64,000 nt of DNA from NCBI GenBank assembly GCA_035708165.1, contig DASSSZ010000001.1:165814-229813 (forward strand). The letters run 5' to 3'. Under the pieces are notes generated by a model. It worked only from the letters and a program-made list of their open reading frames with translations. It had not been told where the DNA came from and did no database searches. The DNA is from Minisyncoccota bacterium. GTDB taxonomy: Bacteria > Patescibacteriota > Minisyncoccia > Phycocordibacterales > UBA2100. The position numbers and the translations under genes were made by a program. Positions 8,045-57,794 of the stretch are shown piece after piece (position 1 is the stretch's first letter; the number at the start of each line of letters is the position of its first letter).

Positions 8045-9859
8045 CTAGTCTGCCACCTCCTCGGTGCTGCTGGCCTCACCCACGTACTGCGGCTCCGTCG
8101 CCGCGAGCCACTGGAAGAACGGGTACATGGCAGGCGCTGCCCCGGAGAGCGTACCTGCGGGCGCATGCTCGAGCACTACCGCGAATGCGTAGCGCGGGTG
8201 ATCGTACGGCCAGAAGCCGACTGCCCATGCGTTCATCCACTCGTTATGCAAGCCGAGCTGCGCGGTACCCGTCTTCCCTGCCACTTGCACCCACGGATTG
8301 TTCATCGAGGCTGCAGCGCCGCGCGGGTCGGTCACCGAGAGCCGCATGCCTTCGCGCGCGATCTCCATGTTCTGAGGCGGGATATCGAGGTGCGAGCTCT
8401 GGATCGGCGCATCCTTGGTGATCTGCGGCGTGAGCAAGGTGCCGCCGTTGGCGAGCGCGGCGACCGCGCGTACCGCCTGCAGGGGCGTCACCTGCGTGCC
8501 GTATTGGCCGATCGAGGAGATGTAGGTGTCGCCGAGCCGCCACGGTTGCCCATCGAAATTCGCCGCCTTCCACGCCGGGCTCGAGAGCGTTCCGGCGAGC
8601 TCGTTCGGGAAGATGCTGCCGGTCGTCGAGCCGAATCCGAACATATGGAGGTACTTATTGATATTGTCGATGCCCATGCCCGGCTGATCCTTGTAGCCGC
8701 CGCCGATCTCATAGAAGAAGACGTCCGAGGAGTACGCGATGCCATGGCGGACGTCCATCCATCCCTGGTAGCGCCAGTCGTGATAGACATAGGGGTGCGT
8801 GGGATCGTACGGATTATCCACCGAGATGGAGCCATCAGAGTAGATCTGCGTCGTGGGCGTGATGACGCCTTCCGTGAGAGCGCCGGTCGCGATGAACGGC
8901 TTCACGATCGAACCCGGCGTGTAGGCGCCGGCGACCGCGCGGAAGAGGAAGGGGCTTTCCGGGTCCGCGTTATAGCTCGCGATCGCGGCTGCGTCGCCGT
9001 CGGTCATGGCCTGCGGTGCGTACTCGGGGAAGCTCGTGATCGCGACGATCTTGCCAGTGCGCACGTCCATGATGACCGCTGCCCCGCCTTCGAAGCCGTT
9101 ATCCTGCGCATGCTGGCTGAGGATCTGGAAGAGTTTGGATTGCATCTTGGCATCGATGCTGAGCGTGACATCGGCGCCATCCACCGGCGGCTCCACGATA
9201 TGCTGGCGCGTGACGTTCCCGAGCGCGTCCTTCTCGAGGATCTCGCTGCCGTTCGTTCCGGAGAGCGCGCCATCGAAGAGCTTCTCCGCGCCCGCGACGC
9301 CCGAGAGCGCCGTGCTCCACCAGTTGCCGCTCGCGTCCTGCTGCGGGTAGCGCACGTAGCCGAGCAGGAGCCCGAGGCCGGGCAGGCTCGTATACCGGCG
9401 GCTCGCGTACGGAGTGGACGTCCCCTGCGCCGGCTCGTTCCAGGCGAGCTCGACGCCGTTCGTATCGTAGATGACGCCGCGCTGCGCGAAGATGAGCGAG
9501 CGCGAGAGCGAATTGTTCGCCGCTGCCGCCGCGTACTGCGCGCCCTCCACGACCTCGAGGTCGTATGCGCGGAAACCGAAGATGCCCACGACGAGCACGA
9601 AGAGGACGCCTGCCGTGACGATGCCGAAGCGCGAGACCGGGCGCTCTACCCTGCCCTCGAGCTGCGCCGGATCGAGCGATGGAAGGTTCGAGGAATCGAG
9701 GAAGATCTCATCCGGTTCGATCTCGACCTCGGCCGTGCCGGTGCGCAGGACCGCCGAGCGTCCCCGCCTGTTCCGCCATTGCCGCGCGAACCAATTCATC
9801 AGGCGCATTCTACCATTTCGCCTTCCTGCCTGCCTGAGGCAAAAATAACGGCCGAGCAC
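8045..9859 (-). CDS. mrdA: Penicillin-binding protein 2 (class B transpeptidase); probable true start at MRLMNWFAR (9808)
   Basis: N-terminal TM, PBP dimerisation region, SIVKPF (SxxK), SSD, KTGTA motifs. Located downstream of mreBCD. Confidence 0.85.
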   Translation of the reverse strand: MLGRYFCLRQAGRRNGRMRLMNWFARQWRNRRGRSAVLRTGTAEVEIEPDEIFLDSSNLPSLDPAQLEGRVERPVSRFGIVTAGVLFVLVVGIFGFRAYDLEVVEGAQYAAAAANNSLSRSLIFAQRGVIYDTNGVELAWNEPAQGTSTPYASRRYTSLPGLGLLLGYVRYPQQDASGNWWSTALSGVAGAEKLFDGALSGTNGSEILEKDALGNVTRQHIVEPPVDGADVTLSIDAKMQSKLFQILSQHAQDNGFEGGAAVIMDVRTGKIVAITSFPEYAPQAMTDGDAAAIASYNADPESPFLFRAVAGAYTPGSIVKPFIATGALTEGVITPTTQIYSDGSISVDNPYDPTHPYVYHDWRYQGWMDVRHGIAYSSDVFFYEIGGGYKDQPGMGIDNINKYLHMFGFGSTTGSIFPNELAGTLSSPAWKAANFDGQPWRLGDTYISSIGQYGTQVTPLQAVRAVAALANGGTLLTPQITKDAPIQSSHLDIPPQNMEIAREGMRLSVTDPRGAAASMNNPWVQVAGKTGTAQLGLHNEWMNAWAVGFWPYDHPRYAFAVVLEHAPAGTLSGAAPAMYPFFQWLAATEPQYVGEASSTEEVAD

Positions 9860-10790: not shown

Positions 10791-11578
10791 AGGCCGGACG
10801 GCACGACCGAGACGAACGGAAGGCTGCTCAGATTGAGCGGCACGCGCAGGTAGACGGTCTTCTCCGCATCAGACGGATCGGACTCGATATCGCCCACTGT
10901 GCCGATGATCGCCTGCTTGGCGCCGTAGTAGACCGGGTCGCCGACGGAAAGCGGCGTATCGCGCGGGATGCGCATGACGCCATTGCCGCCGCCGCGGCCG
11001 GTCACGCTCGCCGTCGTCGAGGTGCCGACGAGGCCGGTGGTCTGCCGCCCGGGCGAAAGGAAGATATCCACGAGCGCCGTATGCGCCTGCGCGTCCGAGA
11101 CGACGCCGAGGAGCACATCGCCCGGCGCCTCGACGAACGCGCCCTTGAAGACGCCGTCAGACGTGCCGCCGCCGATCACGAACGTGCCGTACGGCGATGC
11201 GCTCTCGTTCGAGAGCACGGGCACCGTGATGCGACCTGAGGATGAAGCAGTGGCGTCGGCGAGCGACCGCAGCGATGCGTTCTGCTCCGCGAGCAGGCGG
11301 TTCTCCGTCGCGAGCGACTGGAGATCCGCGACCTGCGCGCGCAGCGCGATATTCTCCTCCGCAAGGCGCGCCTTGCTGGCGAAGAGGCCCGACGCATCGA
11401 GCGCCGAGGCGGCGCTCGCGACGCCGCCCCAAGCCGCGCCTGCGCCGGCGCGCACGAGCGCTTTGCCCGGGCCGCCGAGGAGCGCATCGAGCGCGACCGC
11501 GGCGATCGCGATGATGCTCACGATGAGGAGGCCGCGCGGCGCCTGCCCGCGGCTATTGCGTCGGGACGAAATCATCAT
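10787..11578 (-). CDS. mreC: Rod shape-determining protein MreC
   Basis: N-terminal TM, coiled coil (LAEENIALRAQVADLQSLATENRLLAEQN), and beta-rich C-terminal domain. Overlaps the mreB stop. Confidence 0.8.
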   Translation of the reverse strand: MMISSRRNSRGQAPRGLLIVSIIAIAAVALDALLGGPGKALVRAGAGAAWGGVASAASALDASGLFASKARLAEENIALRAQVADLQSLATENRLLAEQNASLRSLADATASSSGRITVPVLSNESASPYGTFVIGGGTSDGVFKGAFVEAPGDVLLGVVSDAQAHTALVDIFLSPGRQTTGLVGTSTTASVTGRGGGNGVMRIPRDTPLSVGDPVYYGAKQAIIGTVGDIESDPSDAEKTVYLRVPLNLSSLPFVSVVPSGL

Positions 11579-12632
11579 CTGCCGTGAGGAGCGCTTCCTG
11601 GTAAAGCTCGATATCGTCGAGCACGAAGCCGGTGCCGCGCACCACGGCAGTCAGCGGGTCGGGCGCGACGCGCGCCGGGACGCCGAGGGATTGCGTGAGG
11701 AGCTCGGGAAGGCCGCGCAGCAGGGCGCCGCCGCCGGTGAGATGGATGCCATCGCGCATGACGTCGCCCAGCACTTCCGGCGGCGTGGTCTCCACGACCT
11801 CCTTCACCGCCTCGACGAGCTCGTCCACGGTGTGGCCGATCGCGTTCCGGATATCGGCATCCGTCACGAGGACTTCGCGCGGGAGCCCGGTCACCAGGTC
11901 GCGCCCGCGCACGAGCGTATCGAGCTGCTCCTCGACAGGCAGGACCGACCCTACGGCGAGCTTGAGATCCTCCGCCGTCCGTTCGCCGATGAGGATCTTG
12001 TGCTCGCTCCTGATGAACGAGCTGATGTCGGCGTTGAAGCGGTCGCCCGCGACCTTCACGTTGCGGGAATTCACGATGCCGCCGAGGCTGATGACGCCGA
12101 TGTTCGCCGTGCCGCCGCCGATATCGATGATCATGCTGCCGGACGGCTTCTGGACCGGGAGCCGGATGCCGATCGCGGCCGCCATCGGTTCCTCGATCAC
12201 GTGCACCTCGCGCGCACCGGCGTTCTTCGCCACGTCGCGCACCGCGCGCACCTCGACGGAGGTCACGCCGGACGGCACGCCGATCACGACGCGCGGGCCG
12301 AGGAAGCGGCGCTGCGCGCCCTGCGCCTTGTTGAGGAGGTATGCGAGCATCTCTTCCGTCACTTCGAAATCGGAGATGACGCCGTCCACGAGCGGCTGCA
12401 CCGCGGTGATGTGCGCTGGCGTGCGGCCGAGCATCTCCTTGGCCTGCATGCCGACGGCCACCACCTGGCCGGTCTTCTGGTTCACCGCGACGATGGACGG
12501 CTCGTTGATGACGATGCCGCGACCTTTGACGTACACGAGCGTATTCGCCGTCCCGAGATCGATGCCGATATCGTGCGAGACGAGGCCCGTCATGCGGCCG
12601 AACGATTGCGTGAGTGCGTCGGTGATAGCCAT
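11553..12632 (-). CDS. mreB: Rod shape-determining actin homolog MreB
   Basis: IGIDLGTANTLVYV, DIGGGTANIG, LTGGGALLRGL: canonical MreB motifs. 359 aa. Confidence 0.9.
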   Translation of the reverse strand: MAITDALTQSFGRMTGLVSHDIGIDLGTANTLVYVKGRGIVINEPSIVAVNQKTGQVVAVGMQAKEMLGRTPAHITAVQPLVDGVISDFEVTEEMLAYLLNKAQGAQRRFLGPRVVIGVPSGVTSVEVRAVRDVAKNAGAREVHVIEEPMAAAIGIRLPVQKPSGSMIIDIGGGTANIGVISLGGIVNSRNVKVAGDRFNADISSFIRSEHKILIGERTAEDLKLAVGSVLPVEEQLDTLVRGRDLVTGLPREVLVTDADIRNAIGHTVDELVEAVKEVVETTPPEVLGDVMRDGIHLTGGGALLRGLPELLTQSLGVPARVAPDPLTAVVRGTGFVLDDIELYQEALLTADDDFVPTQ

Positions 12633-17782: not shown

Positions 17783-18799
17783 CTACCGCTTCGCTATGAT
17801 CGCCTTCTTGTAGACGTCGAGGTGCTTCAGCGCCTCGCCCGTGCCCTTGGCGACGCAGTACGGCGCGTCCTTGGCGACGCGCGCCTTGACGCCCGTGCGG
17901 CGGTAGACGAGCTCGGAGAGGTTGCGCAGCTGCGAGGAGCCGCCCGTCATCACGATGCCGTGATCGATGATGTCGCTCGCGAGCTCGGGCGGCGTCTCCT
18001 GGAGCACGTCCTTGATCGCGCCGATGATCTGGCGCAGCTCGCGGCTGATGGCGCGGACGATCTCGTTCGTGCCGATCTCGACCGAGCGCGGCAGCCCGGT
18101 CACGTAATCCCGGCCCTTCACCGTCATGGTGAGCTCCTCCTCGAGCGGGACCGCCGACCCGATCCCGATCTTGATATCCTCCGCCATCTTGTCGCCGATC
18201 GCGAGATTCGCGTTCTTCTTCACGTAATCCACGATGGCGTGGTCGATCTTCGTGCCGGCGCACTTCACCGATGTGGACGAGACGATCCCGCCCAGCGAGA
18301 TGACCGCGACGTCTGCCGTGCCGCCGCCGAGGTCCACCACCATGTGCCCGCGCGCTTCCTGGATCGGGATGCCAGCGCCGATCGCCGCGAGAATGGGCTC
18401 CTTCACGACATACGCGTTCTTGGCGCCAGCTTTCGTGGCAGCTTCCACCACAGCGCGCCGCTCGGTCGAGGTCACGCCGGCAGGGACGGAGACCATCACC
18501 TCCGGCCGGAAGAGGTTGAGCTTCCCCATCGCTTTGCGCATGAAATACCGGAGCATCGCTTCGGTGACGCGGTAATCCGCGATGACGCCATCCTTCATGG
18601 GGCGGTACGCGCGGATCGTATCCGGCGTGCGGCCGATCATCTCCTTCGCGCTATCGCCCACCGCGAGGATCTTATTATCCTGCTCCGAGACCGCGACCAC
18701 CGACGGCTCGTTGAGGACCACGCCCCTGCCCGGGACGAACACGAGGACGGTCGTGGTGCCGAGATCGATGCCGAGGCGCGGGGTGAACGAGAATGCCAT
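17783..18799 (-). CDS. Second actin-like MreB paralog, standalone (start at MAFSFTPRLGIDLG)
   Basis: LGIDLGTTTVLVFV, DLGGGTADVAV, MTGGSSQLRNL motifs. Not adjacent to mreCD. Confidence 0.8.
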   Translation of the reverse strand: MAFSFTPRLGIDLGTTTVLVFVPGRGVVLNEPSVVAVSEQDNKILAVGDSAKEMIGRTPDTIRAYRPMKDGVIADYRVTEAMLRYFMRKAMGKLNLFRPEVMVSVPAGVTSTERRAVVEAATKAGAKNAYVVKEPILAAIGAGIPIQEARGHMVVDLGGGTADVAVISLGGIVSSTSVKCAGTKIDHAIVDYVKKNANLAIGDKMAEDIKIGIGSAVPLEEELTMTVKGRDYVTGLPRSVEIGTNEIVRAISRELRQIIGAIKDVLQETPPELASDIIDHGIVMTGGSSQLRNLSELVYRRTGVKARVAKDAPYCVAKGTGEALKHLDVYKKAIIAKR

Positions 18800-38043: not shown

Positions 38044-39738
38044 ATGACTGATCTCTCTGATTTGCGCGACGACCTCGCCGGCGCGCTCGATGGCGACGTG
38101 ACGGATGACCCTGCCGTGCGGAAGGAATACAGCCGGGATACCTCGCTGTTCGAGGAGACCCCGGGACTCGTCGTCTTCCCTAAGAACGCGCAGGATGTCT
38201 CGCGCGCGGTGCGGCTCGTCGCCGACGCGAAGCGCGACGGGCTCGATATCTCGATCGCGGGGCGCTCCGCGGGCACCGACATGACCGGCGGCCCGCTCAC
38301 GTCCGGCGTCTCGCTCGTCTTCACGAAATACATGAACCGCTTCCTCGGCTGCGACGGGACGGTCGCTTCGACCGAGCCAGGCGTCTACTACCGCGATTTC
38401 GAGAAGGAGACGCTCAAGAAAGGCGTCATCCTCCCCTCTTATCCGGCAAGCCGCGAATTGTGCGCCATGGGCGGCATCGTCTCCAATAATTCAGGCGGCG
38501 AGAAGACTCTCCGCTACGGCAAGACCAACCGCTATATCGAATCGCTCGATGTCGTGCTCGCTGACGGCTCGATCATCACGACAGAGCCGCTGGATGGCGA
38601 CGGGCTCGCGCAGAAGGAAGCGCTCGAGACGTTCGAGGGCGAGATCTACCGCAAGCTCCACGCGCTGATCGAGGGCAATCGCGACGCGATCGAGGCCGCG
38701 CGCCCGCGCGTCTCGAAGAACTCGGCCGGCTACTACCTCTGGAACGTCATGGATCCGCCGGCGAAGCAGCGCGACCCATCGGTCGTCTTCGATCTCGGCC
38801 AGCTCATCTGCGGCAGCCAGGGCACGCTCGGGCTCGTCACGAAGGAGACGCTCACTATGGTGCACACGAAGGAGAAGCACGCGATGCTCGTCATCTTCCT
38901 GCGCGATATCGGGAAGCTCCCGGAGATCGTGAAGCGCGTCCTGCGGTACGAGCCGGAATCGTTCGAATCGTATGACGATAAGACCTTCAATCTCGCGGTG
39001 CGGTTCTTCCCGCAGATCGTGCAGCAGATCGGCATCTCGCGGCTCCTCTCGCTCGGCATCTCGTTCCTGCCGGAAGCCGGCATGGTGCTCCGAGGCGGGC
39101 TGCCGACGCTCGTCCTCATGGCGGACTTCGCCGAGGACACGCAGGAGGAAGCGGATCGCAAGGCGCGCGAGGCGCACCAGGCGCTCGCAGGGCTGCCCGT
39201 CACGGCGCGCACCGCCGGCCCGGGCATCCAGAGCGAGAAGTACTGGATCATCAGGCGCGAGAGCTTCTCGCTCCTGCGCAAGAACGCGCACGGCCTCTAC
39301 GCCGCCCCGTTCATAGACGACCTCATCATCCCGCCGGACCAGTACCCCGTCTTCCTGCCGAAGCTGACCGCGCTCCTGTCCGAGTACGACCTGCTCTACA
39401 CCATCGCCGGGCACATCGGCGACGGCAATTTCCATATCATCCCGCTCGTTGACCTCGGCAAGCCCGAGACCCGGAAGACCATCGAGGAGCTCACGCCGCG
39501 TGTCTACAAGCTCGTGCTCGCGCACGGCGGCTCGATCACTGCCGAGCATAACGATGGCATCATCCGCACGCCCTACCTGCCGCTGCAGTACGGCGAGACG
39601 GTGATGAACCTCTTCGCCGAGGTGAAGCGGATCATGGATCCGCTGGGGATCCTCAACCCGGGCAAGAAAGTCGGCGGCACCGTCGCCGATATCGACGCGC
39701 GCATGGTCCGCGCGACCCCGAAGGCGAAAACGAGCTAA
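38044..39738 (+). CDS. FAD-linked oxidase (GlcD / D-lactate dehydrogenase-like, FAD_binding_4 + FAD-oxidase C-terminal)
   Basis: 564 aa. N-terminal FAD-binding PCMH domain pattern (GRSAGTDMTGG..; GGIVSNNSGGEKTLRYG). Confidence 0.65.
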   Translation: MTDLSDLRDDLAGALDGDVTDDPAVRKEYSRDTSLFEETPGLVVFPKNAQDVSRAVRLVADAKRDGLDISIAGRSAGTDMTGGPLTSGVSLVFTKYMNRFLGCDGTVASTEPGVYYRDFEKETLKKGVILPSYPASRELCAMGGIVSNNSGGEKTLRYGKTNRYIESLDVVLADGSIITTEPLDGDGLAQKEALETFEGEIYRKLHALIEGNRDAIEAARPRVSKNSAGYYLWNVMDPPAKQRDPSVVFDLGQLICGSQGTLGLVTKETLTMVHTKEKHAMLVIFLRDIGKLPEIVKRVLRYEPESFESYDDKTFNLAVRFFPQIVQQIGISRLLSLGISFLPEAGMVLRGGLPTLVLMADFAEDTQEEADRKAREAHQALAGLPVTARTAGPGIQSEKYWIIRRESFSLLRKNAHGLYAAPFIDDLIIPPDQYPVFLPKLTALLSEYDLLYTIAGHIGDGNFHIIPLVDLGKPETRKTIEELTPRVYKLVLAHGGSITAEHNDGIIRTPYLPLQYGETVMNLFAEVKRIMDPLGILNPGKKVGGTVADIDARMVRATPKAKTS

Positions 39739-39823
39739 GGCGTGCCGCGTGCACGGCGTGCGTGCAGTTGTCCACTTGCTTTACTTTGTACAGCGGATAC
39801 GATGAGAACGTACTGAGCTAATC

Positions 39824-40432
39824 GTGCGCACCTATATGGAATCATCGAGCGTCCTCCTTATCAGCGGCAGCAACCGGACCGGGTCGTTCACGACGGCGAT
39901 CGCGCATGCCCTCGATGCGCTCGTGCCGGACGGTCTCACCCTGGTGCATGCCGATATCAGCGACCTCCCGCTTTTCGATCAGGATCTCGAGGCGGATCCG
40001 CCGGCGGCCGTCACGCGCCTCAAGGAAGCGATCCGCGCCGCGGACGGGATCATCATCGCGACGCCCGAGCATAACCGCTCGATCCCCGCGCTCCTCAAGA
40101 ACGCGCTCGACTGGGCATCGCGCCCGTACGGCGACAATGCCTGGAGCGGCAAGGTGATGCTCCCGATCGGGGTCACGACCGGCCGGATCGGCGCGGCGCT
40201 CGCAGTGGCGCACCTGCGCCAGATCGGGCTCTACCTCGGCATGCGCGTGCTCGGCCAGCCCGAGCTCTACCTCGCCGGCGTGCGGGAGCTCATCGCGGAG
40301 GACGGCTCGATCGCCGACTCGAGCACGCGCGAGCTGCTCGCAGGCGCCCTCGCGTCGTTCGGCGGGACCATCCGGGAGGCGCGTGCCGCAGCGCATGAAA
40401 CGGGCGGCCATGCGGCCGCCGCGCTCAGGTAG
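39824..40432 (+). CDS. NAD(P)H-dependent FMN reductase family protein
   Basis: LLISGSNRTGSFT..IIIATPEHNRSIPALLKNALDWAS is a flavodoxin-like FMN_red signature. Confidence 0.7.
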   Translation: MRTYMESSSVLLISGSNRTGSFTTAIAHALDALVPDGLTLVHADISDLPLFDQDLEADPPAAVTRLKEAIRAADGIIIATPEHNRSIPALLKNALDWASRPYGDNAWSGKVMLPIGVTTGRIGAALAVAHLRQIGLYLGMRVLGQPELYLAGVRELIAEDGSIADSSTRELLAGALASFGGTIREARAAAHETGGHAAAALR

Positions 40433-40443
40433 CGAGCAGGCTC

Positions 40444-40974
40444 TTACGCCCGGTCGTGGGCAGGGCACTTGCAGCCGTGCGGCTTGATGAACTCATCGAA
40501 GTACTCCTCGCCGTAGTCCACGAGGAGCTCTTCGCCTGGCTCGATCGCGCGCGCGGCGTAGTAGAAGATGTGCCTGCCGTCCACTTCGGCTTCGACATTC
40601 GTCGCGGGATTGCAGCCATGGTTCACGTACCGCGCGATGTTGCTCTTCGGCGAGCCGTCGATCGTCCAATCCTCATCGATCTCGAAGAGGTACTTCGTGC
40701 CGAGCGTGTCCGCCTTCCTGGTCGGGATGATCTTGCCCGTATACTCGATGATCATCTCGCCTTTCTTGAAGTAGTCGGTCGCGAAGAGCCCGAGCCCCAT
40801 CCCGGGCCGCGAGCGCTTCACGACAAGGCGCGCCGCGGGCTCTCCGCCGCGTGTCTTGCGCATCGGCTGCGCCGGCGCGCGCTTCGCCTTTGCGCGCTTC
40901 GGCTCCGCCGGCGCTGCGTCGCCCTTCCCCTTCCCCTTCCTAGTCCCTTTCGGTGCTGTAGTCCTCGGTGTCAT
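40444..40974 (-). CDS. SET-domain protein-lysine methyltransferase with Lys/Arg/Ala/Pro-rich N-terminal tail (176 aa; start MTPRTTAPKG)
   Basis: GMGLGLFA (GxG), YVNHGCNPATN (NHxCxPN), ELLVDYGEEYFD (ELxxDY), C-terminal HGCKCPAHD. The N-terminus is KGTRKGKGKGDAAPAEPKRAKAKRAPAQP. The upstream 525 codons of the 701-aa track ORF are antisense to real plus-strand genes. Confidence 0.75.
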   Translation of the reverse strand: MTPRTTAPKGTRKGKGKGDAAPAEPKRAKAKRAPAQPMRKTRGGEPAARLVVKRSRPGMGLGLFATDYFKKGEMIIEYTGKIIPTRKADTLGTKYLFEIDEDWTIDGSPKSNIARYVNHGCNPATNVEAEVDGRHIFYYAARAIEPGEELLVDYGEEYFDEFIKPHGCKCPAHDRA

Positions 40975-41058
40975 ACGCGCGCAGTATAGCAGACGCGCTT
41001 CCTGCGCACGCCTGTGGGCAACTCTGCGCCTTCCACGGTATACTGAAGCCGTCATCCC

Positions 41059-41244
41059 ATGCCGCTCCTCACTGCCATCATCATCGCGATCGCCGGCATA
41101 TACGCCCTCTACGGCGTCGTGCTCGCCTACCACTGGTTCCGCTTCAGCACGAGCACCGGGATCGCGGTCGCGAGCGCAGCGATCTACTACGCTGCCGGTC
41201 TCGCGCTCTCGCTCATGGCGCTCGCCGCCGCGGCCCTGCTCTAG
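41059..41244 (+). CDS. Small two-TM membrane protein (YdbS-like partner of the downstream PH-domain protein)
   Basis: 61 aa, two hydrophobic helices. Its stop lies 3 nt before the start of the next gene. Confidence 0.45.
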   Translation: MPLLTAIIIAIAGIYALYGVVLAYHWFRFSTSTGIAVASAAIYYAAGLALSLMALAAAALL

Positions 41245-41247
41245 CCT

Positions 41248-41784
41248 ATGCTGATCCCCGAACTCCGCTCCCACCCTGACGAACGCGTCCTCCTCGAGGT
41301 CCGCAAGCACTGGTTCGTCTTCCTTGTCGCTGCGGGCACCTCGTTCGCGCTCATCCTCCTGCCCTTCGTCGCCGCGATCCTGCTCTCCGCGTTCGGCCCT
41401 TCGGCGATCGCGCTCTTCGGCACGCCGTACTGGACGATCTTCGCCGCGCTCTGGCTCCTGCTCACCTTCATGCATCTCGCGACGGTCTGGACAGAGTACG
41501 TCCTCGATTCGATCATCGTCACCGAGAAGCGCGTCATCTTCATCGAGCAGAAGGCGCTCTTCAGCCGCGAGGTCGTCTCGCTGCGCCTCGAGCTGGTGCA
41601 GGACGTGACGGTGGATACCGAAGGCATCTTCGCCACGCTGCTCACGTACGGGACCGTGCACGCCGAGACGGCCGGCGCCGAGGCGAACCTCGCCGTGATG
41701 CACGGGATCCCGGACCCGGGGCACGTGAAGGATGTCATCCTGCAGCAGTCGGCTGTCTGCATCCGCGAGCGCGGCGGGCGCTAG
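41248..41784 (+). CDS. Bacterial PH-domain (bPH_2/YdbT-like) membrane protein
   Basis: Two N-terminal TM helices then a PH-like beta-sandwich (YVLDSIIVTEKRVIFIEQKALFSREVVSLRLELVQDV). Confidence 0.55.
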   Translation: MLIPELRSHPDERVLLEVRKHWFVFLVAAGTSFALILLPFVAAILLSAFGPSAIALFGTPYWTIFAALWLLLTFMHLATVWTEYVLDSIIVTEKRVIFIEQKALFSREVVSLRLELVQDVTVDTEGIFATLLTYGTVHAETAGAEANLAVMHGIPDPGHVKDVILQQSAVCIRERGGR

Positions 41785-41817
41785 CAATTCCGCACGGAAC
41801 CGGGTAGCATTACGGCA

Positions 41818-43080
41818 ATGGCGAAAGACGGCCTCTCCACCGACCCCTACAAAGGCGTCCGTGATTTCTACCCGCAGGACCAGTTCGTCCAGCGGTTCCT
41901 GTTCGAGGCCATGGCGCGCGCGTGCGAGTCGTTCGGCTACGAGGAGTATGCCGCGTCGATCCTCGAGCCGGCCGACCTCTACCGTGCGAAGGGCGCCGCG
42001 AACGAGGAGATCGCGAACGAGCAGACGTACACCTTCACCGACCGCGGCGACCGGCTGGTGACCCTGCGGCCTGAGATGACCCCGACTGCCGCGCGCATGG
42101 TGGCAGCGAAGCGGCGCGAGCTCGCGTTCCCGCTGCGCTGGTACTCGATCCCGAACGTCTTCCGGTACGAGCGCCCGCAGAAAGGCCGCCTGCGCGAGCA
42201 CTGGCAGCTCAATGCCGACCTCTTCGGCGTCGCGGGTATCGAGGCGGAAGCGGAAGCGATCGCGCTCGCGCACCGGGTAATGCTCGAGCTCGGCGCTTCG
42301 GAGCACGATTTCGAGATCCGCGTGAACGATCGCGCCCTCATCGAAGCGGGCCTCGCCGAAGCAGGCGTCGGGCCAGAGGAAGCGCACGCGGCGATGGCGC
42401 TCCTCGATAAGCGGGCGAAGCTCGCGGATTTCGACGAGAAGCTCGCGGTCCTGCTCGGCAGCGACCGTGCGAGCGCGCTCGCAGGCTATTTCGAGCGCGT
42501 GACCAGCACGACGCGGCTCGAGCAGCTCCAGGAGCTGCTGCTCGCGCAAGGCGTGCGCACGATGGTCATCGATACCGCCATCACCCGCGGCTTCGACTAC
42601 TACACCGGGATCGTCTTCGAGGTCTTCGATGCCGACCCGAGCAACGCGCGTTCCCTCTTCGGCGGCGGCCGCTATGACCGGCTCCTGGAGCTATTCGGCG
42701 AAGACCCCATCCCGGCGGTCGGCTTCGGCATGGGCGACGTGACGGCGCGCGACTTCCTCGAGAGCCATGAGCTGCTGCCCTCGTACGTCCCTGCGACCGA
42801 GCTCTCCTTGTGCGTGCTTGACCCGGAAGCGATGACCCACGCGATCCAGCTCGCCTCCGCCCTGCGCAGCCAGGACGTGACGGTGGCGATCAACTACTCG
42901 TGCAAGAAGCCGGCGGATCAGCTGAAGGCTGCCGACAAGCTCGGCATCCCGTTCGCCATCTTCGTCGGCGCACGCGAGGTGGAGAGCGGGCAGTACTCGA
43001 TCCGCCAGCTCGCGACCGGACGGGAGACCATCCTGCCGGCCAATCGCATCGCCGACCACCTCTTCTCCTCGGCCGGCTGA
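41818..43080 (+). CDS. hisS: Histidyl-tRNA synthetase
   Basis: GVRDFYP, LRPEMTP, FRYERPQKGRLREHWQ class II motifs, and a C-terminal anticodon-binding domain. Confidence 0.9.
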   Translation: MAKDGLSTDPYKGVRDFYPQDQFVQRFLFEAMARACESFGYEEYAASILEPADLYRAKGAANEEIANEQTYTFTDRGDRLVTLRPEMTPTAARMVAAKRRELAFPLRWYSIPNVFRYERPQKGRLREHWQLNADLFGVAGIEAEAEAIALAHRVMLELGASEHDFEIRVNDRALIEAGLAEAGVGPEEAHAAMALLDKRAKLADFDEKLAVLLGSDRASALAGYFERVTSTTRLEQLQELLLAQGVRTMVIDTAITRGFDYYTGIVFEVFDADPSNARSLFGGGRYDRLLELFGEDPIPAVGFGMGDVTARDFLESHELLPSYVPATELSLCVLDPEAMTHAIQLASALRSQDVTVAINYSCKKPADQLKAADKLGIPFAIFVGAREVESGQYSIRQLATGRETILPANRIADHLFSSAG

Positions 43081-43173
43081 GATCGCGCTCCGGAAGCCCG
43101 GGCAGCGATAGCTCTCTCTCGTGCATGGCCTATCCACGTTGCCGCCCCGCGCGCGCCGTGCGACTATGTCCCA

Positions 43174-43761
43174 ATGCCAGGACCCCGCATCATCACGTTC
43201 GATATCGAGACGCGCAATCAATTCTCCGATGTCGGATCATCCGACCCCGCTGCGCTCGATATCTCGCTCGTCGGCGTGCACGACTCGGGGACCGGCGAGT
43301 ACACGAGCTACCTGCTTGAGGAGCTGCCGCTCCTCTGGAAGCTGATCGAGGAGACCGATATCCTCGTCGGATACAATTCCGATCATTTCGATATCCCGCT
43401 GCTCAATAAGTACTATCCGGGCGACCTCACGAGGATCAAGAGCATCGATATCATGAAAGAGATCCAGGCCGTGCTCGGCCGCCGCTTGCGGCTCGATGCC
43501 GTGGCGGAAGGGACGCTCGGCGCCAATAAGAGCGGCAACGGCCTTGAGGCGCTGAAATGGTGGAAGGACGGCGAGATCGAGAAGATCCGCACCTACTGCC
43601 TCAAGGACGTGGAGCTGACGCGCAAGCTCTTCGATTACGCGATGGCGAATGGCAAGCTGAAGTACAAGGAGCTCGGCAAGACGAAAGAGGTCGCGCTCGA
43701 TACCTCGCGCTGGCTCGCCGTAACGGAGACCGGCGCGCTCACGCAGACCCTCGGATTCTAG
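43174..43761 (+). CDS. DEDD-type 3'-5' exonuclease (RNase H-like fold)
   Basis: ITFDIETRN..(D,E), YNSDHFDIPLL, and C-terminal Y..D block. Confidence 0.6.
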   Translation: MPGPRIITFDIETRNQFSDVGSSDPAALDISLVGVHDSGTGEYTSYLLEELPLLWKLIEETDILVGYNSDHFDIPLLNKYYPGDLTRIKSIDIMKEIQAVLGRRLRLDAVAEGTLGANKSGNGLEALKWWKDGEIEKIRTYCLKDVELTRKLFDYAMANGKLKYKELGKTKEVALDTSRWLAVTETGALTQTLGF

Positions 43762-43776: not shown

Positions 43777-44748
43777 CTACTTCAGGTACGTCTCGATGTT
43801 CGCCTCTTGCGCGGCGTACGTATCCGCGCAGTGGATCTGCCCCGCGCTGTCGTGCAGGTAGTAGAGGCAGGTCGTCGTCGTGGGATCGAGCACGGCCTTG
43901 ATGGCATCGCTGCCCGGCTCGTCTATCGGCGTGGGCGGCAGGCCCGCATGCGCGTAGGTGTTGTAGGGAGAATCGAGCGACTTCATCGCCGGCGTGGCAG
44001 CCGGCCACCACTTCCCCGCCGTTCCCGCCGCGTACTGCAGCATCGCATCGATCTGCAGCGGCATGCCGGCCTCGAGCCGGTTCCAGATGATGCCGGCGAT
44101 GAGCGGCATGTCGCTCGTCCCGGCCGCCTCGCGCTGCACCAGGGAGGCGATCTTCAGCACCGTAGTCCACTTGATATCCTGCGCGAGCGCTTCCTTCGCG
44201 AACGGCGCGAACTCCTCCTCGAAATGCGCGCGCATCCGCGCAGCCGCTTCGTCCGGCGAAGCACCCTTCGGCATCAGGTAGGTATCAGGGAAATAGACGC
44301 CTTCGGCGTAGTCCGTCCCGGGCTCCGTGGATGATGCATCCCACGTCGCGATCTCCTGCGGCGACCAGCCGAGCGCGGCGGCGAGCCGCTCCCCTACCTC
44401 TTCTTTCCGCAGCCCTTCGGGGATCGTGACCCAGACCTGGTCGGGGCCCTGCGCGATCGCATGCGCGATCCCGAACGCATCCAGATCCTTCGGCAGGCGG
44501 TAGCCGCCCGGCGCGATCGAGCGCGCGCCGAGCGCCACTCGGAAGCCCCACGCATTGCGGATGAAGCCGCCAGCCAGGAGCGCCTCGACGGCTGCCCCGG
44601 TGCTCTCGCCGCGCGGCACGGTGAACTGCGCTTCGTTCGCGTCGCTCCCTGGCGCGCTCATGAGCGTGCCGTACGCGAGGATCGCGCCGATCGCGATCAC
44701 GAGCGCCAGGATGATTGCTGCCGCGATGCCGATCCGTCTCATGCTCAT
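43777..44748 (-). CDS. mltG: Endolytic murein transglycosylase MltG (YceG-like); start at MSMRRIGIAAAI
   Basis: N-terminal TM, then YceG-domain blocks (ASLVQREAAGTSDMPLIAGIIWNRL..LQIDAMLQYA). Confidence 0.7.
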   Translation of the reverse strand: MSMRRIGIAAAIILALVIAIGAILAYGTLMSAPGSDANEAQFTVPRGESTGAAVEALLAGGFIRNAWGFRVALGARSIAPGGYRLPKDLDAFGIAHAIAQGPDQVWVTIPEGLRKEEVGERLAAALGWSPQEIATWDASSTEPGTDYAEGVYFPDTYLMPKGASPDEAAARMRAHFEEEFAPFAKEALAQDIKWTTVLKIASLVQREAAGTSDMPLIAGIIWNRLEAGMPLQIDAMLQYAAGTAGKWWPAATPAMKSLDSPYNTYAHAGLPPTPIDEPGSDAIKAVLDPTTTTCLYYLHDSAGQIHCADTYAAQEANIETYLK

Positions 44749-47347: not shown

Positions 47348-48865
47348 CTAGATGGACGCGACCGTATCGTAGAACTGGTTATCTTCCCGATACCCTCCCC
47401 GCCCCTTCCTGATGTCGCGGATATCGTCCGCGAGCTCGATCGCCTTGATGTACTTCACCATCTTGAATCCGAGCTTCGATTCCACGCGCAGGCGCAAGGG
47501 AGCGCCGTGCGGGATCGGGAGCGGGTTCCAATTCATCTCGTACGCGAGGATCGTCTGCGGGCGTCGCGCGTGCGAGAGCGGGAGCGATCCGTAGAACTGG
47601 TAGCCATCATCCTTGATGTCGTACGCGTAGAAGACGATGTATTTCGCCTCCGGCTTCACCTTCACGTGCTTCAGGAGCTCGGAAACCTGCACGCCGCCCC
47701 ACTCGGCCACGGCAGACCAGCCCTGGATGCAGTTGTGCTTCGCGATGTGCTCGGCCTTCGGGAGCTTCTGCAGGTCCTCGAGCGAGAAGAACGCCTCTTC
47801 CTCGACGAGGCCGCCGACCCGCAGCTTCCAGTCCTTGAAGCCGTTCTCCTTGAGCGCGAGCCACTCGGGCGTCGTCGGCGGGTAGCCGTTCACGCGATGG
47901 TACGGCGAGATGTCCTCGCGCGTATAGCGCTGCCGCGAGACGAGCCGCCCGAACAAGCCTTCCATGAGAGGCTCGAGCAGCCGATCGCCGAGGATCTGCC
48001 AGCGGCGCTGGTCGGCGAGCGTGTACCAGGTCGCCCAGATGTTGATGAGGATGAGGCCCGCGATGATCCCGAAGAAGATGAGGATCCCCGCGTTCATCGA
48101 AATGCCAGTCCCGGCGGTCATACTTCCGATGGAGCTCGGGAACCCGACCGCGAGGACGAGCGTCACGTGGACGACGATGAAGGCGACGAACAGCAGCATG
48201 ATGATGAAGTGGATGCTGCGGGCGGACTGTCTCCCGCCGAAGAGCTTCGCGTACCAAGGGAAGCGCCCGATGAATGCCGGCGACATGCACAGCCCGGTCG
48301 CGATCTGGAGCGGCGCCAGGACGAAGATGACGAGGAAGTACGTCAGCTGCTGGAGCGGATCGAAGGGCGTGAATGCCGACGCGGGCGGCGTGTGGAAGGT
48401 CGCGTACGTCACGAACGTATGCAGCGATTCAGGGATGATCGACCAGCTCGTGGGAACGATATCCTTCCACATGCCCGTCGCGAAGAGGAGAAAGACGTAG
48501 ACGACGCCGTTCACGACCCAGGTGAGCGCCGCGAGAAAGTGCCAGCGCCGCCCCGAGCCGAGATTGTGGCGGCCGCCGGGAAGCGCGATGAGCGAGCTCA
48601 CGTTCTCCGCCTCGTCCATCGAGGTCCAGAGCTTGTCCTTGGGCATTATCTTCTTCCCGAACTTGATCCATTCCGTCCCGTCCATGGCGTCGTCGTTCCA
48701 ATAGAGCTTCGGGTGGTCCGAGAGGATCTGGATGCCTGCACGGATGAGGAAGATCATGAGGACCGCATTGATCCAGTGCGTGACCTGTACCCACAGCGGG
48801 AAGGTGAACGTGAAGAAGGGCATCACAGGGTATGGTACCGCAGAGATCGCCGGTTCAAAGTGCAC
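47348..48865 (-). CDS. Membrane molybdopterin-dependent oxidoreductase: N-terminal cytochrome-b-like (MsrQ/YedZ-like) TM domain fused to C-terminal sulfite-oxidase-fold (MsrP/YedY-like) domain
   Basis: 5-6 TM helices with conserved His. The C-terminal region has the Oxidored_molyb pattern (..CIQGWS..; ..ILAYEMNWNPLPIPHGAPLRLRV..). Lys-rich composition, unlike the Arg-rich host genes. Confidence 0.5.
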   Translation of the reverse strand: MHFEPAISAVPYPVMPFFTFTFPLWVQVTHWINAVLMIFLIRAGIQILSDHPKLYWNDDAMDGTEWIKFGKKIMPKDKLWTSMDEAENVSSLIALPGGRHNLGSGRRWHFLAALTWVVNGVVYVFLLFATGMWKDIVPTSWSIIPESLHTFVTYATFHTPPASAFTPFDPLQQLTYFLVIFVLAPLQIATGLCMSPAFIGRFPWYAKLFGGRQSARSIHFIIMLLFVAFIVVHVTLVLAVGFPSSIGSMTAGTGISMNAGILIFFGIIAGLILINIWATWYTLADQRRWQILGDRLLEPLMEGLFGRLVSRQRYTREDISPYHRVNGYPPTTPEWLALKENGFKDWKLRVGGLVEEEAFFSLEDLQKLPKAEHIAKHNCIQGWSAVAEWGGVQVSELLKHVKVKPEAKYIVFYAYDIKDDGYQFYGSLPLSHARRPQTILAYEMNWNPLPIPHGAPLRLRVESKLGFKMVKYIKAIELADDIRDIRKGRGGYREDNQFYDTVASI

Positions 48866-54703: not shown

Positions 54704-55999
54704 CTAGTAGTTCCGGAGCTGCTTCGCGCGCTCGTGATAACGGATCTTCTCGAGCGCCTTTGCCTCGATCTGGCGGATGCGCTCGCGGGTGACGCCGAAC
54801 TCGCGGCCGACTTCCTCGAGCGTGTAGCATACGCCATCGCCGGTGAGGCCGTTCCTCATCTCGAGGATCTTGCGCTCCTTCGGCGAGAGCTCGCCCAAGA
54901 CCTCCTGGATCTGCTCCTGGAGGATCCGGAGCGATGCATCCTGATCCGGCGAAGTCACCGAGTCGTCGGCGATGAAGCTGCCGAGCGTCGAGCCGGCCTC
55001 GTCTTCGGAGCCGACCGGCGTCTCGAGCGAGACAGTATCCTGGCTGATCTTCTGGATGGTGTAGATCTTATCGAGATCCACGCCCATCTCCGTGGCGATC
55101 TCCTCCGGCAGCGGATCGCGCCCGAGGTGCTGGGAGAGCTCGCGCACCTTCTGCTTGTACTTGGCGATCGTCTCCACCATATGGACCGGGATGCGGATGG
55201 TGCGGGACTGGTCGGCCAAAGCGCGCGTGATCGCCTGGCGGATCCACCAGGTCGCATACGTCGAGAACTTGAATCCCTTCGTGAAGTCGAACTTGTCGAC
55301 CGCCTTGAAGAGACCGATGTTCCCTTCCTGGATGAGATCGAGGAGCGTGAGATCCGCCGAGCGGCCCACGTACTTCTTCGCGATCGAAACCACGAGGCGC
55401 AGGTTCGAGCGCGCAAGGATGTTGCGCGCCTCCTCATCGCCGGCGAGGATGCGCTTCGCGAGTGTGCGCTCGTCTTCCGCGGAAAGGAGCGGGTACTGGC
55501 CGATCTCGCGCAGGTACATCTGGATGGAATCGTAGCCGGCGTCCGAGCGGCGATGGTGCTGGAGCTTCTTCTTCTCCAGGATCTCGTCGGCCGTATCGTC
55601 GAGCATGTTGCCGCTCTCGATCACGTCCACGCCAGCTGCGGCGAAGCGCTCATAGAGGTCCTCGAGCAGCGCGACATCCTGCTCGATCGTAGGGAACCGG
55701 CGCAGGATCTCATCGTACGTGATGTAGCCGCGGCCGCGGCCGAGCGTCAGGAGCTCCTCGGCCTTCGGATCTGCCTTCGCGGCACTTGCCTTCTTCGCTG
55801 CTTTCGGTGCAGCAGCCTTCTTGGGCGCGACCTTCTTTGCGATCGTCTTCTTCGGCGCGGCGGCCTTCGCGGCCGTCTTCGCGCTCGTCTTCTTCTTCGT
55901 GTTCGCCGTCGTACGGCGGACGGCCGTCGGAGCGGCCTTCTTCAGCGTCTTTTTCGCGCTTTTCTTTGTTGCGGTTTTCGTATTCTTTGCTGCTGTCAT
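54704..55999 (-). CDS. rpoD: RNA polymerase sigma-70 (RpoD) with ~80-aa histone-H1-like Lys/Ala-rich N-terminal tail replacing region 1.1
   Basis: Regions 1.2-4.2 are canonical ([27 protein letters not shown], helix-turn-helix 4.2). Start [17 protein letters not shown] (ATG 55999). The track ORF continues upstream into dnaG in another frame. Confidence 0.9.
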
Positions 56000-56048
56000 A
56001 TCAAAATTGCATACCGACCCACGCCGCAATGCGGCGTTTTGCCATACT

Positions 56049-57794
56049 CTACCGTATGGTGTCAATCTTTGCAATAGCAGTTGTGAGATGAGCGCAGCGT
56101 GAAAGAGCGTCAGCAGCGGCTGTTTCGTCATGCGCCGCTTCAGCGCGGCGCAGGTCGCTCGAGGCGATCGCGAGCTCGCGCTGCAGGCGCCCGCGATAGA
56201 CAGCGATCCGGAGCGCCTCAGCATCCGCCGCAAGCGAGACGCTGTCCCCGAAGAGGCCTTCCGCCGCGAACCGCAGGGACTCGCGTTCCTCTTCGGAGAG
56301 CGTCTCGGGGATCGCCGGCGTGATGCCTGTCGCGTCCTCGATCTCCTGCGCGAGCTTCGCAAGATCGAGCGCAGGCGCCGGGAGCGATGACTGCCAGAGA
56401 TAGATGCCGAGCAGCTGGCGCGTCTGCGCATGCGCGATCGCGGGGTCGGCCGCGCGCCGCACCGGCGCCGCAGCGGGCTCCTGCGCGCGCGGCGCCGGCC
56501 CCTGCTCGTGCGCGAGCTCAGCGAGCGCCCGCGCGAGTGCCTCGCGCACCGCAGCTTCGGGCATGCCGATCCGATCGGCGGTCTCGCGCAGGAAATGCTC
56601 GCGGTCGATCGGGCTCTTGATCGCCGCGACGAACGGCAGCACCCCCCGCTCGACCGCGCGCGCGAACGCGCGGCGCTCCGGCTGGGCGCGCTCGAGCGTA
56701 TCGATGAGGAACGTGATGATATGGCGCGCGCCCCGGATCGCCGCAGCGAACGCCTCCTTCCCTTCCCCATTGATGAGATCCGCCGGGTCCTTCGCGCCGA
56801 GCGCGGCGACCTTCACATCCATCCCTTGGGCAAGCGCGATGCGCGCGCTCTTGGCCGCTGCGCGGATGCCGGCCTCGTCGGCGTCGAGCGCGAGGATCAG
56901 GTTCTCGGAAAGGCGCCGGATGAGCGCGATATGCTCCTCAGTGAGCGCCGTGCCGGAAACCGCGACTGCATTCGTCCAGCCGGCCTGATGGCACATGACG
57001 AGATCCATCTGCCCTTCCACCAGCACGGTGCAATCGTACTTGCGGATGGAGAGCTTCGCTCGATCGTAGCCGTAGAGGATGCGCGACTTGTGGAAGAGCG
57101 GCGTCTCGGGTGAGTTGAGGTACTTCGGCGGCTCCTGCCCTTCAGGGTGCGCCGTTCCCGCCGGCTCGAAGATGCGCCCGCTGAACGCGATCACGCGTCC
57201 GGCCGAGTCGGCGATCGGGAACATGATCCGGCTGCGGAACCGGTCGTATGCGCCTTTCTCGGTGCGCTTCGCGAGACCTGCCCGCTCGATTGCGCGCTCG
57301 TCGAATCCTTTCTCCTTGAGGTGCGAGACGAGGCCGCGCCAGTCGGCGGGCGCCCAGCCGAGCCGGAAAGAGCGAATCGTAGCCTCCGCGATGCCGCGCC
57401 CGCGAAGGTAGTCCTTCGCCGGCTCGTTCCCGGCAAGCTGCCGCTCGTAGAACACCGTCGCGGCCTCGCAGGCGGCGAGCAGCTCCTCGCGCTCGTTGCG
57501 CTCGCCGGGCTTCTCTTCCGTGATCGTGACGCCCGCGCGATCCGCCAGGATCTTGAGTGCGCCCCTGAAATCGATCCCCTCGACCTCCTCGACGAACGAG
57601 AAGATATCGCCGCCAGCGCCGCAGCCGAAGCAGTGGTAGGTCCCGCGGCTGGGGCTGACGACGAACGAGGGCGTCCGTTCCGAATGGAACGGGCAGCGCG
57701 CCTTGTAGCTGGCGCCCGCGCGGATGAGCTTCACGTACTGGCCCGCTACGTCGACGATCGAGAGCCGGTCCTTGATCTGCTGCACCGTATCCAT
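56049..57794 (-). CDS. dnaG: DNA primase DnaG
   Basis: Zinc ribbon [25 protein letters not shown]-pol domain, TOPRIM (EGQMDL..DADEAG). Start [11 protein letters not shown], with a GGGGG tract just upstream. Confidence 0.9.

Follow-up and report, generated by a model that had tools for sequence, protein, structure and literature searches.

A stand-alone SET-domain protein with a polybasic N-terminal tail in a Paceibacterota genome, and the recurrence of such tails across its family

The gene and its SET domain

The window analysed here is a 64,000-nucleotide stretch of contig DASSSZ010000001.1, from a bacterium of the candidate phyla radiation (CPR), with an average G+C content of about 65%. 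On its minus strand, at positions 40444 to 40974, lies a gene for a 176-residue protein made up of a SET plus post-SET module (residues 49-176) and a disordered tail. The exact protein sequence is already held at NCBI as 'MAG TPA: SET domain-containing protein [Candidatus Paceibacterota bacterium]' (P0001), on a contig of 302,555 bp. A first-pass annotation of the window had described the function of this protein as undescribed in its lineage, which is correct for the biochemistry but not for the annotation. The principal features of the gene are as follows.

40444..40974, minus strand: complete coding sequence of the SET protein, 176 residues, with the stop codon at 40444-40446 (supported by the translation, the Pfam SET match and the identical NCBI protein)
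40510..40797, minus strand: the SET domain itself, residues 60-155 (match to the complete Pfam profile; model confidence above 90; structural matches to MLL1, MLL3 and SET1 at probability 1.00)
40831..40974, minus strand: polybasic N-terminal tail, residues 1-48, rich in Lys, Arg, Ala, Pro and Gly (supported by coding-type third codon positions, low model confidence of 55-69, charge, and the Lys-rich N-terminal tails of the closest clade)

A scan with the Pfam SET family (PF00856), the check suggested at first pass, returned a match to the whole profile (positions 1-105 of 105) over residues 60-155, with an E-value of 1.7e-23 and a score of 83.5 bits against a cut-off of 22.4, an assignment far beyond chance; the related PR domain gave a weaker match overlapping that to SET. 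The signature segments read earlier from the sequence are all present, as GMGLGLFA (58-65), NHGCNPATN (118-126), ELLVDYGEEY (149-158) and C168-K-C170 near the C-terminus. Searching the PDB by sequence gave 126 matches, of which the best 60 are all eukaryotic SET/PR-domain methyltransferases: MLL1/KMT2A leads (E=5e-15), and yeast Set1, MLL3, EZH2 and G9a/GLP are also among these 60. The NCBIfam model for the Legionella protein AnkI/LegAS4/RomA (NF043024) scored 32.5 bits against an equivalog cut-off of 550 bits, over the SET region only, and is therefore below threshold. The protein with its basic tail is a further member of an already annotated family, neither a rarity nor a new kind of protein. 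Two plus-strand open reading frames at the same place, 40456..40989 and 40565..40774, were rejected as shadow frames, since they have their third codon positions in common with the SET frame and the Pfam domain is found in the minus frame only.

Structure and catalytic residues

The AlphaFold2 model, based on an alignment of 55 sequences, has a mean predicted local distance difference test (pLDDT) score of 84.7, with residues 50-176 mostly above 90 and residues 1-48 at 55-69 and without secondary structure. When the model was compared with the PDB using Foldseek, the SET domains of MLL1, MLL3, MLL4 and yeast COMPASS came top (probability 1.00, 33-37% identity). Next came G9a/GLP, EZH2 and SETD8, and the matches to G9a, EZH2 and SETD8 likewise have a probability of 1.00. 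The sequence motifs of the fold are located as follows.

40783..40803, minus strand: motif I, the GxG S-adenosylmethionine (AdoMet) loop G58-M-G60-L-G62-L-F64, aligning with H-G-R-G-L-F of MLL1
40597..40623, minus strand: motif III, N118-H-G-C121-N-P-(A-T)-N126, read from the sequence, with a two-residue insertion between P and N
40501..40530, minus strand: motif IV, E149-L-L-V152-D-Y154-G-E-E-Y158, read from the sequence and placed by the MLL1 alignment
40456..40476, minus strand: post-SET motif G167-C168-K-C170-P-A-H173, in which G167, C168 and C170 are invariant

In the 55 aligned homologues the invariant positions are G60, L63, Y78, G80, A88, Y95, L96, F97, G107 and N112 in the first half of the domain and N118, H119, C121, P123, E128, E148, E149, D153, Y154, Y158, P165, G167, C168 and C170 in the second, while G58 and G62 are conserved in at least 90%. 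On alignment with MLL1, G60 and G62 fall in the GxG loop, Y78 on the Tyr of the E-Y-A-G segment, Y95 on the Tyr of Y-M-F, N118, H119 and C121 on N-H-S-C, V152, D153 and Y154 on Y-D-Y, and C168 and C170 on the post-SET C-N-C. The MLL1 equivalents are presumably G3840/G3842, Y3858, Y3883, N3906/H3907/C3909, Y3942/D3943/Y3944 and C3957/C3959, a numbering that fits the mutant names N3861I, Q3867L and C3882SS in PDB titles. Y154 corresponds to the second Tyr of Y-D-Y and is the putative catalytic Tyr; V152 corresponds to the first, which, from the residue roles in MLL1, we take to be the product-specificity (Phe/Tyr switch) position.

Besides this Val, two local peculiarities may be mentioned. The Ala-Thr insertion in the NHxCxPN motif is common, within the aligned set, only to the window protein and its nearest homologue P0002 (NHGCEPTTN). 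At the C-terminus, homologues end in CxCxxC, CxCxxH or CxCxxxxH, the presumed fourth ligand position being Cys or His at +3 or +5; C121, C168, C170 and H173 of the window protein probably form a Cys3His zinc site. Since the invariant residues align with the MLL1 motifs, the residue classes expected for AdoMet binding, for the lysine channel and for the putative post-SET zinc site are all present by alignment. The earlier description of a bona fide SET-domain protein is thus borne out by Pfam, the MLL1 alignment and Foldseek alike, with the catalytic and AdoMet motifs all in place and a putative post-SET zinc motif; and because these residues are kept across phyla, the protein is very likely to be an active lysine methyltransferase.

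The basic tail and the start codon

The tail differs sharply from the rest of the protein. Residues 1-48 have a net charge of +11 and an isoelectric point (pI) of 11.7, with 14 Lys or Arg, 10 Ala, 7 Pro and 6 Gly, whereas the core is acidic (pI 5.6, net charge -4). The string KGTRKGKGKGDAAPAEPKRAKAKRAPAQP, on which the first-pass annotation had based its proposal of an H1-like basic N-terminus, occupies residues 9-37, and the proposal stands in the sense that the tail is polybasic, coding and disordered, the likeness to H1 being one of composition.

A tail of this kind could be an artefact of annotation. Most homologues comprise 130-145 residues, the nearest of them, P0002, is tail-less, and genomes of high G+C content carry long open frames upstream of true starts (the SET frame is open for 701 codons); were M38 the true start, the product would be a typical tail-less member of 139 residues. 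The codon statistics argue otherwise. The G+C content at third codon positions (GC3) is 0.89 in the domain, 0.86 over codons 38-58 and still 0.78 over codons 1-37, but drops to 0.55 directly upstream of M1 in the same frame. The upstream sequence also bears on the question, and its elements are the following.

40983..40988, minus strand: TATACT -10 box, ending 8 nucleotides before the ATG at 40974, a leaderless-type promoter
40975..41058, no strand assigned: intergenic region of 84 bp, from which the SET gene diverges on one side and the genes for the 61- and 178-residue membrane proteins and hisS on the other
38032-38037/38044, 35530-35535/35544 and 48950-48955/48964, plus strand: TATACT/ATG pairs with a spacing of 6-8 nucleotides
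37968-37973/37960, 54095-54100/54088 and 44756-44761/44748, minus strand: TATACT/ATG pairs with the same spacing

The 84-bp region contains a second TATACT, at 41039-41044 on the plus strand, serving the opposite strand. The hexamer occurs 16 times in the window against an expectation of 4.06, a four-fold excess attained by no shuffled sequence, and 10 of the 16 sites end 6-8 nucleotides before the ATG of a long open reading frame, most of these being gene starts supported by codon bias. Hexamers of the form TAnnnT stand at equal spacing before further genes of the window. On leaderless messages the 5'-terminal AUG is itself used for the start. The spacing of TATACT and TAnnnT hexamers suggests, as an observation in its own right, that a leaderless mRNA is the prevailing arrangement for genes of the source genome.

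The box ahead of the SET gene is thus placed for a leaderless start at M1, as at some ten other genes, and by eye neither a comparable box nor an obvious Shine-Dalgarno sequence precedes M38. Moreover, members of the closest homologue clade (P0003 and P0005-P0008, 67-75% identical) have Lys-rich N-terminal tails of 18-51 residues. Because GC3 stays at coding values, the -10 box has leaderless spacing and the closest clade is similarly tailed, the tail is translated and the start is M1; initiation at M38 is very unlikely.

Distribution of the family

The first-pass annotation regarded bacterial SET proteins as uncommon, which proves to be an overstatement. A word-indexed search of protein clusters at 90% identity found 1556 homologues at E<=1e-3, mostly of 130-150 residues, and an exhaustive search of representatives at 50% identity gave 8107 at E<=1e-3, of which 636 reached E<=1e-10 and 17 reached E<=1e-30. 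By a pattern scan of 185,579 species genomes, one genome per species, the SET subfamily is present in at least 570. Reviews had counted 83 SET-bearing bacterial species (2007) and later more than 500 genomes (2014), free-living species included.

The nearest homologue, P0002, is 78% identical to the window protein. Members at 45-61% identity, among the matches listed, come from CPR groups (Kaiser-, Nomura-, Wolfe-, Vogel- and Yonath-bacteria, Paceibacter and Peribacteraceae), from free-living Alphaproteobacteria (Bradyrhizobium, including a complete genome, Rhodopseudomonas palustris, Afipia, Xanthobacteraceae, Caulobacteraceae and Hyphomonadaceae), and from Gammaproteobacteria, Pyrinomonadaceae (Acidobacteria) and one member of the Bathyarchaeia. 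Literature searches found no paper joining 'SET domain' with Patescibacteria. A mobile-element origin of the gene was considered and ruled out: the phage collection held no match to the query, and among plasmids the only matches are SET proteins of Burkholderiaceae megaplasmids, at 34-43% identity.

Basic tails across the family

Tails like that of the window protein recur throughout the family. Among the 120 best matches, six have N-terminal tails with a net charge of at least +6 and eight have C-terminal tails of at least +5. In 119 motif-bearing representatives at 50% identity a basic extension is C-terminal in 51, N-terminal in 14, at both ends in five and absent in 43. Pooling 278 members and requiring a net charge of at least +6 gave 66 with a basic C-terminal tail, 21 with an N-terminal one, five with both and 186 with none, so that about one third are tailed. 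Placed on a similarity tree of these 278 members, the tails require at least 33 changes of state.

The longest tails are C-terminal. Members from Bradyrhizobium, Rhodopseudomonas, Afipia and Xanthobacteraceae carry Lys/Ala-rich C-terminal extensions of 70-160 residues, exemplified in R. palustris by '...KKRAKKAAEAKAERAADKAKSKTGKASSAKTKKAKG...KTKTKTKTKTK...', and most of the proteobacterial H1-like tails of this type begin with a conserved segment of the 'CEKKRKKKRAEARAEKARLKAKAERKA' type. For five members GC3 in the C-terminal tail was confirmed to equal that of the core, as expected of coding sequence. The loci concerned are listed here.

L079, L044, L047, L050, L058, L062, L063 and L065: loci with long Lys/Ala-rich C-terminal tails (Bradyrhizobium, R. 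palustris, Afipia, Xanthobacteraceae and other Proteobacteria), the SET gene starting near position 6001 in most
L069, L072, L074, L075, L077, L078 and L040: further loci of this kind, again with the SET start near position 6001 in most

The proteobacterial hosts of these long-tailed proteins are culturable and genetically tractable. Literature searches on SET proteins together with nucleoid-associated proteins and with Bradyrhizobium or Rhodopseudomonas returned no description of the basic tails. One apparent full-length match, including the tail, to a Kaiserbacteria chromosome (L001) was discarded as spurious, the upstream frame being an Arg-rich non-coding read-through and the SET protein a tail-less one of 132 residues.

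The polybasic tail is accordingly a recurrent add-on of the family, not a peculiarity of the gene at 40444..40974. Across the family its charge is conserved while its sequence, its length and the terminus that bears it vary, a combination that fits a non-specific electrostatic role.

Genomic neighbourhood

The genes surrounding the SET gene, together with the loci that share their arrangement, are as follows.

38044..39738, plus strand: FAD-linked oxidase (Pfam)
39824..40432, plus strand: NADPH-dependent FMN reductase (Pfam), convergent with the SET gene
41059..41244, plus strand: 61-residue membrane peptide, across the 84-bp divergent promoter region
41248..41784, plus strand: 178-residue bacterial-PH (bPH) membrane protein (Pfam)
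41818..43080, plus strand: histidyl-tRNA synthetase, hisS (Pfam)
43174..43761, plus strand: RNase-H-fold exonuclease (Pfam)
43777..44748, minus strand: YceG/MltG (Pfam)
L001, L005, L008, L009, L013, L014, L018, L022 and L029, among others: loci sharing the block at 38044..43761

When the neighbours of 80 related loci, taken with flanks of 6 kb, were clustered, about 15 CPR genomes proved to have the SET gene next to hisS and the exonuclease gene and divergent from them. Nine genomes have the FAD oxidase downstream of the SET gene as well, and several carry an inserted bPH protein, as the window does. The block kept across Kaiserbacteria and Paceibacteria may be summarised as FAD-linked oxidase, SET, optionally the bPH membrane protein, hisS and an RNase-H-fold exonuclease of 191-195 residues. 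Given this stable position beside hisS, the SET gene is an old, vertically inherited, monocistronic resident of the CPR clade.

Pfam assignments of the genes around the window's SET gene reveal housekeeping functions and neither a chromatin-related nor a secretion-related gene, in agreement with the earlier remark that it is isolated from other chromatin-related genes. By eye, the neighbours of alphaproteobacterial SET genes include TetR- and XRE-type regulators and DsbA-like and carotenoid-oxygenase-like proteins, and are unrelated to those in CPR genomes.

Comparison with characterised SET proteins

By both sequence and predicted fold the KMT2/SET1 group (MLL1-4 and yeast Set1) is closest to the window protein, at 33-37% identity over about 120 residues. 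The two share the order of motifs GxG, EY, YxF, NHxCxPN and ELxxDY, followed by the post-SET CxC zinc motif, which makes use of the Cys of NHxC. They differ in that the window protein stands alone at 176 residues, without N-SET, WIN motif or other partner-binding regions (the WRAD interface); in that its presumed fourth zinc ligand is a His at +3 rather than a Cys at +5; in the two-residue insertion NHxCxP-AT-N; in Val at the position of the switch Tyr of MLL1; and in the polybasic tail. The resemblance to MLL implies no specificity for histone H3K4.

A second minimal stand-alone SET protein of similar size is chlorovirus vSET (119 residues), which is without a post-SET zinc motif and, as a dimer, acts on H3K27. 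The 50 best structural matches from Foldseek did not include it, and no phage or virus protein matched the query.

Among bacteria, the comparable SET lysine methyltransferases are chlamydial NUE/cpnSET, Legionella RomA/LegAS4, Burkholderia BtSET and Bacillus anthracis BaSET; SET proteins of Burkholderiaceae are detectable relatives of the window protein (34-43% identity). Two of them have H1-like, lysine-rich substrates: cpnSET methylates Hc1, a disputed result, and BaSET methylates H1. These well-characterised enzymes are all secreted nucleomodulins, delivered into eukaryotic cells by type III or type IV secretion systems, and RomA uses an N-terminal nuclear localisation signal. By analogy, a CPR episymbiont might deliver the window protein to the chromatin or nucleoid of its host, with the tail as a targeting signal resembling one for nuclear localisation; the source is a Paceibacterota bacterium, from a group generally thought to be host-dwelling. 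Host chromatin had indeed been raised as a possible substrate at first pass. Yet neither a signal peptide nor a hydrophobic segment is seen in the window protein (the maximum Kyte-Doolittle value over nine residues is 0.64, although type III and type IV signals may go unrecognised in sequence alone), and it falls far short of the LegAS4 model, as described above. Its subfamily occurs in CPR bacteria and, at 45-61% identity, in free-living bacteria of soil and water, and its gene is a stable, syntenic chromosomal one amid housekeeping genes including hisS, with no island or secretion system adjoining. Furthermore, the known hosts of CPR bacteria are themselves bacteria or archaea. Delivery to a host therefore appears highly improbable, the suggestion of host chromatin as a target finds no favour from these data, and this reading and that of a mis-called start are the least supported of the four rivals considered here.

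The small stand-alone Go1-SET of the archaeon Methanosarcina mazei provides a precedent of a different kind, reportedly methylating the endogenous DNA-associated protein MC1-alpha (Manzur and Zhou 2005). Literature searches of the scope given above disclosed no endogenous substrate apart from Hc1 and MC1-alpha. Go1-SET is the closest functional analogy to the role proposed below. To our knowledge, no basic tail has been reported for Go1-SET, and CPR bacteria are without MC1.

In its composition (29% Lys plus Arg, 21% Ala, 15% Pro, net charge +11 in 48 residues) and predicted disorder the tail itself resembles the H1 C-terminal domain, Hc1 and the tail of the window's RpoD. The likeness to linker histone H1 is compositional only, with no detectable homology, and the tail is considerably shorter than the H1 C-terminal domain of about 100 residues. 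A Pfam scan of the SET protein gave no match to H1/H5 and no winged-helix globular domain.

A proposed mechanism

Taken together, the data suggest a small cytoplasmic AdoMet-dependent protein lysine methyltransferase of a minimal 'SET + post-SET' type. The acidic core (residues 49-176) would form the SET pseudoknot, in which the GxG loop with N118 and H119 would hold AdoMet and Y154, with Y78 and Y95, would line the lysine channel. A structural zinc on C121, C168, C170 and H173 would probably close that channel, and by analogy Val152 at the Phe/Tyr switch should permit the addition of more than one methyl group. The 48-residue tail, lying outside the catalytic fold, would serve as an electrostatic tether to nucleic acid, that is to the nucleoid or possibly to RNA. 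Targets would be lysines of the bacterium's own DNA-bound, lysine-rich proteins, candidates being the conserved polybasic RpoD tail, HU-like proteins and the enzyme's own tail. An endogenous role is favoured by the stable syntenic position beside hisS, the presence of the family in free-living bacteria and the lack of phage copies. Whether a tail-tethered cytoplasmic enzyme with endogenous DNA-bound, Lys-rich substrates is the correct description we consider evenly balanced.

Several points weigh against this description. Catalytic activity, zinc binding, nucleic-acid tethering and substrates are all inferred for the subfamily. MLL-type SET domains are weak enzymes in the absence of their partner proteins, and comparison of neighbourhoods across CPR bacteria and Alphaproteobacteria yielded no functional clue, nucleoid protein or partner. 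About two thirds of members, including P0002, are tail-less at the threshold of +6 used above, from which it follows that the tail is dispensable for the core function. As a loose control, six of 46 confident proteins of the window have a terminal stretch with a net charge of at least +6; the 33% of tailed SET proteins against 13% in this control represents a real but not overwhelming enrichment, and RpoD alone equals the SET tail in magnitude. Lastly, reports on the methylation of Hc1 by the chlamydial SET protein are contradictory.

It is also conceivable that the tail is the substrate and not the anchor, its lysines being methylated in cis or by a second molecule so as to form a regulatory switch, with no role in binding nucleic acid. 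Chlamydial NUE automethylates, a Lys-rich flexible tail on a core of pI 5.6 could reach the active site, and it is a feature of the family that tails work at either terminus. A conserved substrate must, however, lie elsewhere for the tail-less majority, the tails have no conserved lysine-containing motif in common, and C-terminal tails of up to about 160 residues resemble polyelectrolyte binders more than a defined target site. Automethylation as the purpose of the tail consequently seems unlikely.

The breadth of the family raises a further alternative, namely that ribosomal or translation-factor proteins are the substrates and the tail binds rRNA in the manner of ribosomal-protein extensions. 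Retention across very different phyla, tiny CPR genomes among them, would fit a universal substrate; eukaryotic SET enzymes (Rkm1-4) methylate ribosomal proteins, and in CPR genomes the SET gene adjoins hisS. On the other hand, it is divergent from hisS and shares no operon with it, PrmA, known as the lysine methyltransferase of bacterial ribosomal proteins, is no SET enzyme, and the species genomes in which the scan placed the subfamily number, as a lower bound, in the hundreds and not in the tens of thousands. A ribosomal substrate, like automethylation, is judged improbable.

The RpoD tail as a candidate substrate

For the tethered methyltransferase acting on endogenous lysine-rich proteins, the window itself offers a candidate substrate in the housekeeping sigma factor, encoded in a dnaG-rpoD pair at 54704..57794 on the minus strand.

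54704..55999, minus strand: RpoD coding sequence, regions 1.1-4
55766..55999, minus strand: RpoD N-terminal tail, residues 1-78, rich in Lys, Ala and Thr, net charge +24 (candidate substrate only)

The tail precedes region 1.1 and bears out the first-pass description of a long H1-like Lys/Ala tail on sigma-70. It is far from isolated: 119 of the 120 nearest RpoD homologues (70-89% identical) have a tail of about 70-115 residues with a net charge of at least +10 (median +25), and those of the 120 with a named source come from Kaiserbacteria, Paceibacterota or Parcubacteria. The polybasic sigma tail is thus a conserved trait of the lineage. Tailed RpoD and a SET gene occur together in at least two genomes, that of the window and the complete Kaiserbacteria chromosome CP066682.1, which encodes the tailed RpoD P0390 and the tail-less SET protein beside hisS (L001).

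By analogy, the RpoD tail is a plausible candidate substrate of the SET enzyme. The SET family reaches well beyond the lineages with tailed sigma factors, judging from proteobacterial RpoD, and for this reason the RpoD tail cannot be the substrate family-wide. A more specific proposal may nevertheless be formulated, that in CPR bacteria of the Kaiserbacteria/Paceibacteria type the SET enzyme, tethered to the nucleoid, methylates the polybasic RpoD tail and other H1-like tails, tuning the binding of sigma factor and RNA polymerase to DNA; and that, more broadly, a SET core with a movable polybasic tail marks a class of lysine methyltransferases, widespread in bacteria, that are tethered to nucleic acid. 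This combined proposal is speculative and, in our estimation, decidedly unlikely as it stands.

Other features of the window

Two giant putative surface proteins are encoded in the window, each a typical CPR candidate for a role at the cell surface or in attachment to the host. A pair of actin-like open reading frames, 5 kb apart, both start with '...DLGT(A/T)N/T...' and are MreB-like by eye; near them lies a transpeptidase of the penicillin-binding protein 2 (PBP2) type, confirmed as a PBP by Pfam. A further protein joins a membrane domain of the cytochrome b561 type and a molybdopterin oxidoreductase domain in one chain, resembling an MsrQ-MsrP/YedYZ fusion, and is an unusual protein to find in a reduced CPR genome.

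2270..7813, minus strand: putative surface protein of about 1847 residues, with a lamin-tail domain, Big/Ig domains and a C-terminal dockerin
8045..9808: PBP2-type transpeptidase
11553..12632 and 17783..18799, minus strand: actin-like open reading frames
47348..48826, minus strand: b561-molybdopterin oxidoreductase fusion, 492 residues
57901..63951, minus strand: putative surface protein of about 2016 residues, with two peptidoglycan-binding domains, a laminin-G domain and Big_7 repeats

Significance

Knowledge of bacterial SET enzymes comes nearly entirely from the secreted effectors of pathogens, and their role in free-living or ultra-small bacteria is the wider question. At the locus described here, a minimal SET enzyme is encoded by a gene that is stable and vertically inherited within a CPR lineage. 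Considered with its family, it reveals polybasic tails as recurrent in the subfamily, alongside a conserved H1-like tail on the housekeeping sigma factor of the same lineage. The present analysis adds two things, the pattern of 'SET plus movable polybasic tail' that recurs across the family and, on the primary sigma factor of CPR bacteria, a conserved H1-like tail; the connection between them is offered as an unproven hypothesis.

The hypothesis is nonetheless a concrete one that lends itself to testing in relatives available in culture, among them R. palustris and Bradyrhizobium. Should it be wrong, the SET gene is a matter of routine annotation. If it is true, it would point to a 'writer plus tail' regulatory layer, chromatin-like and reminiscent of histone tails, in bacteria with very few transcription factors.

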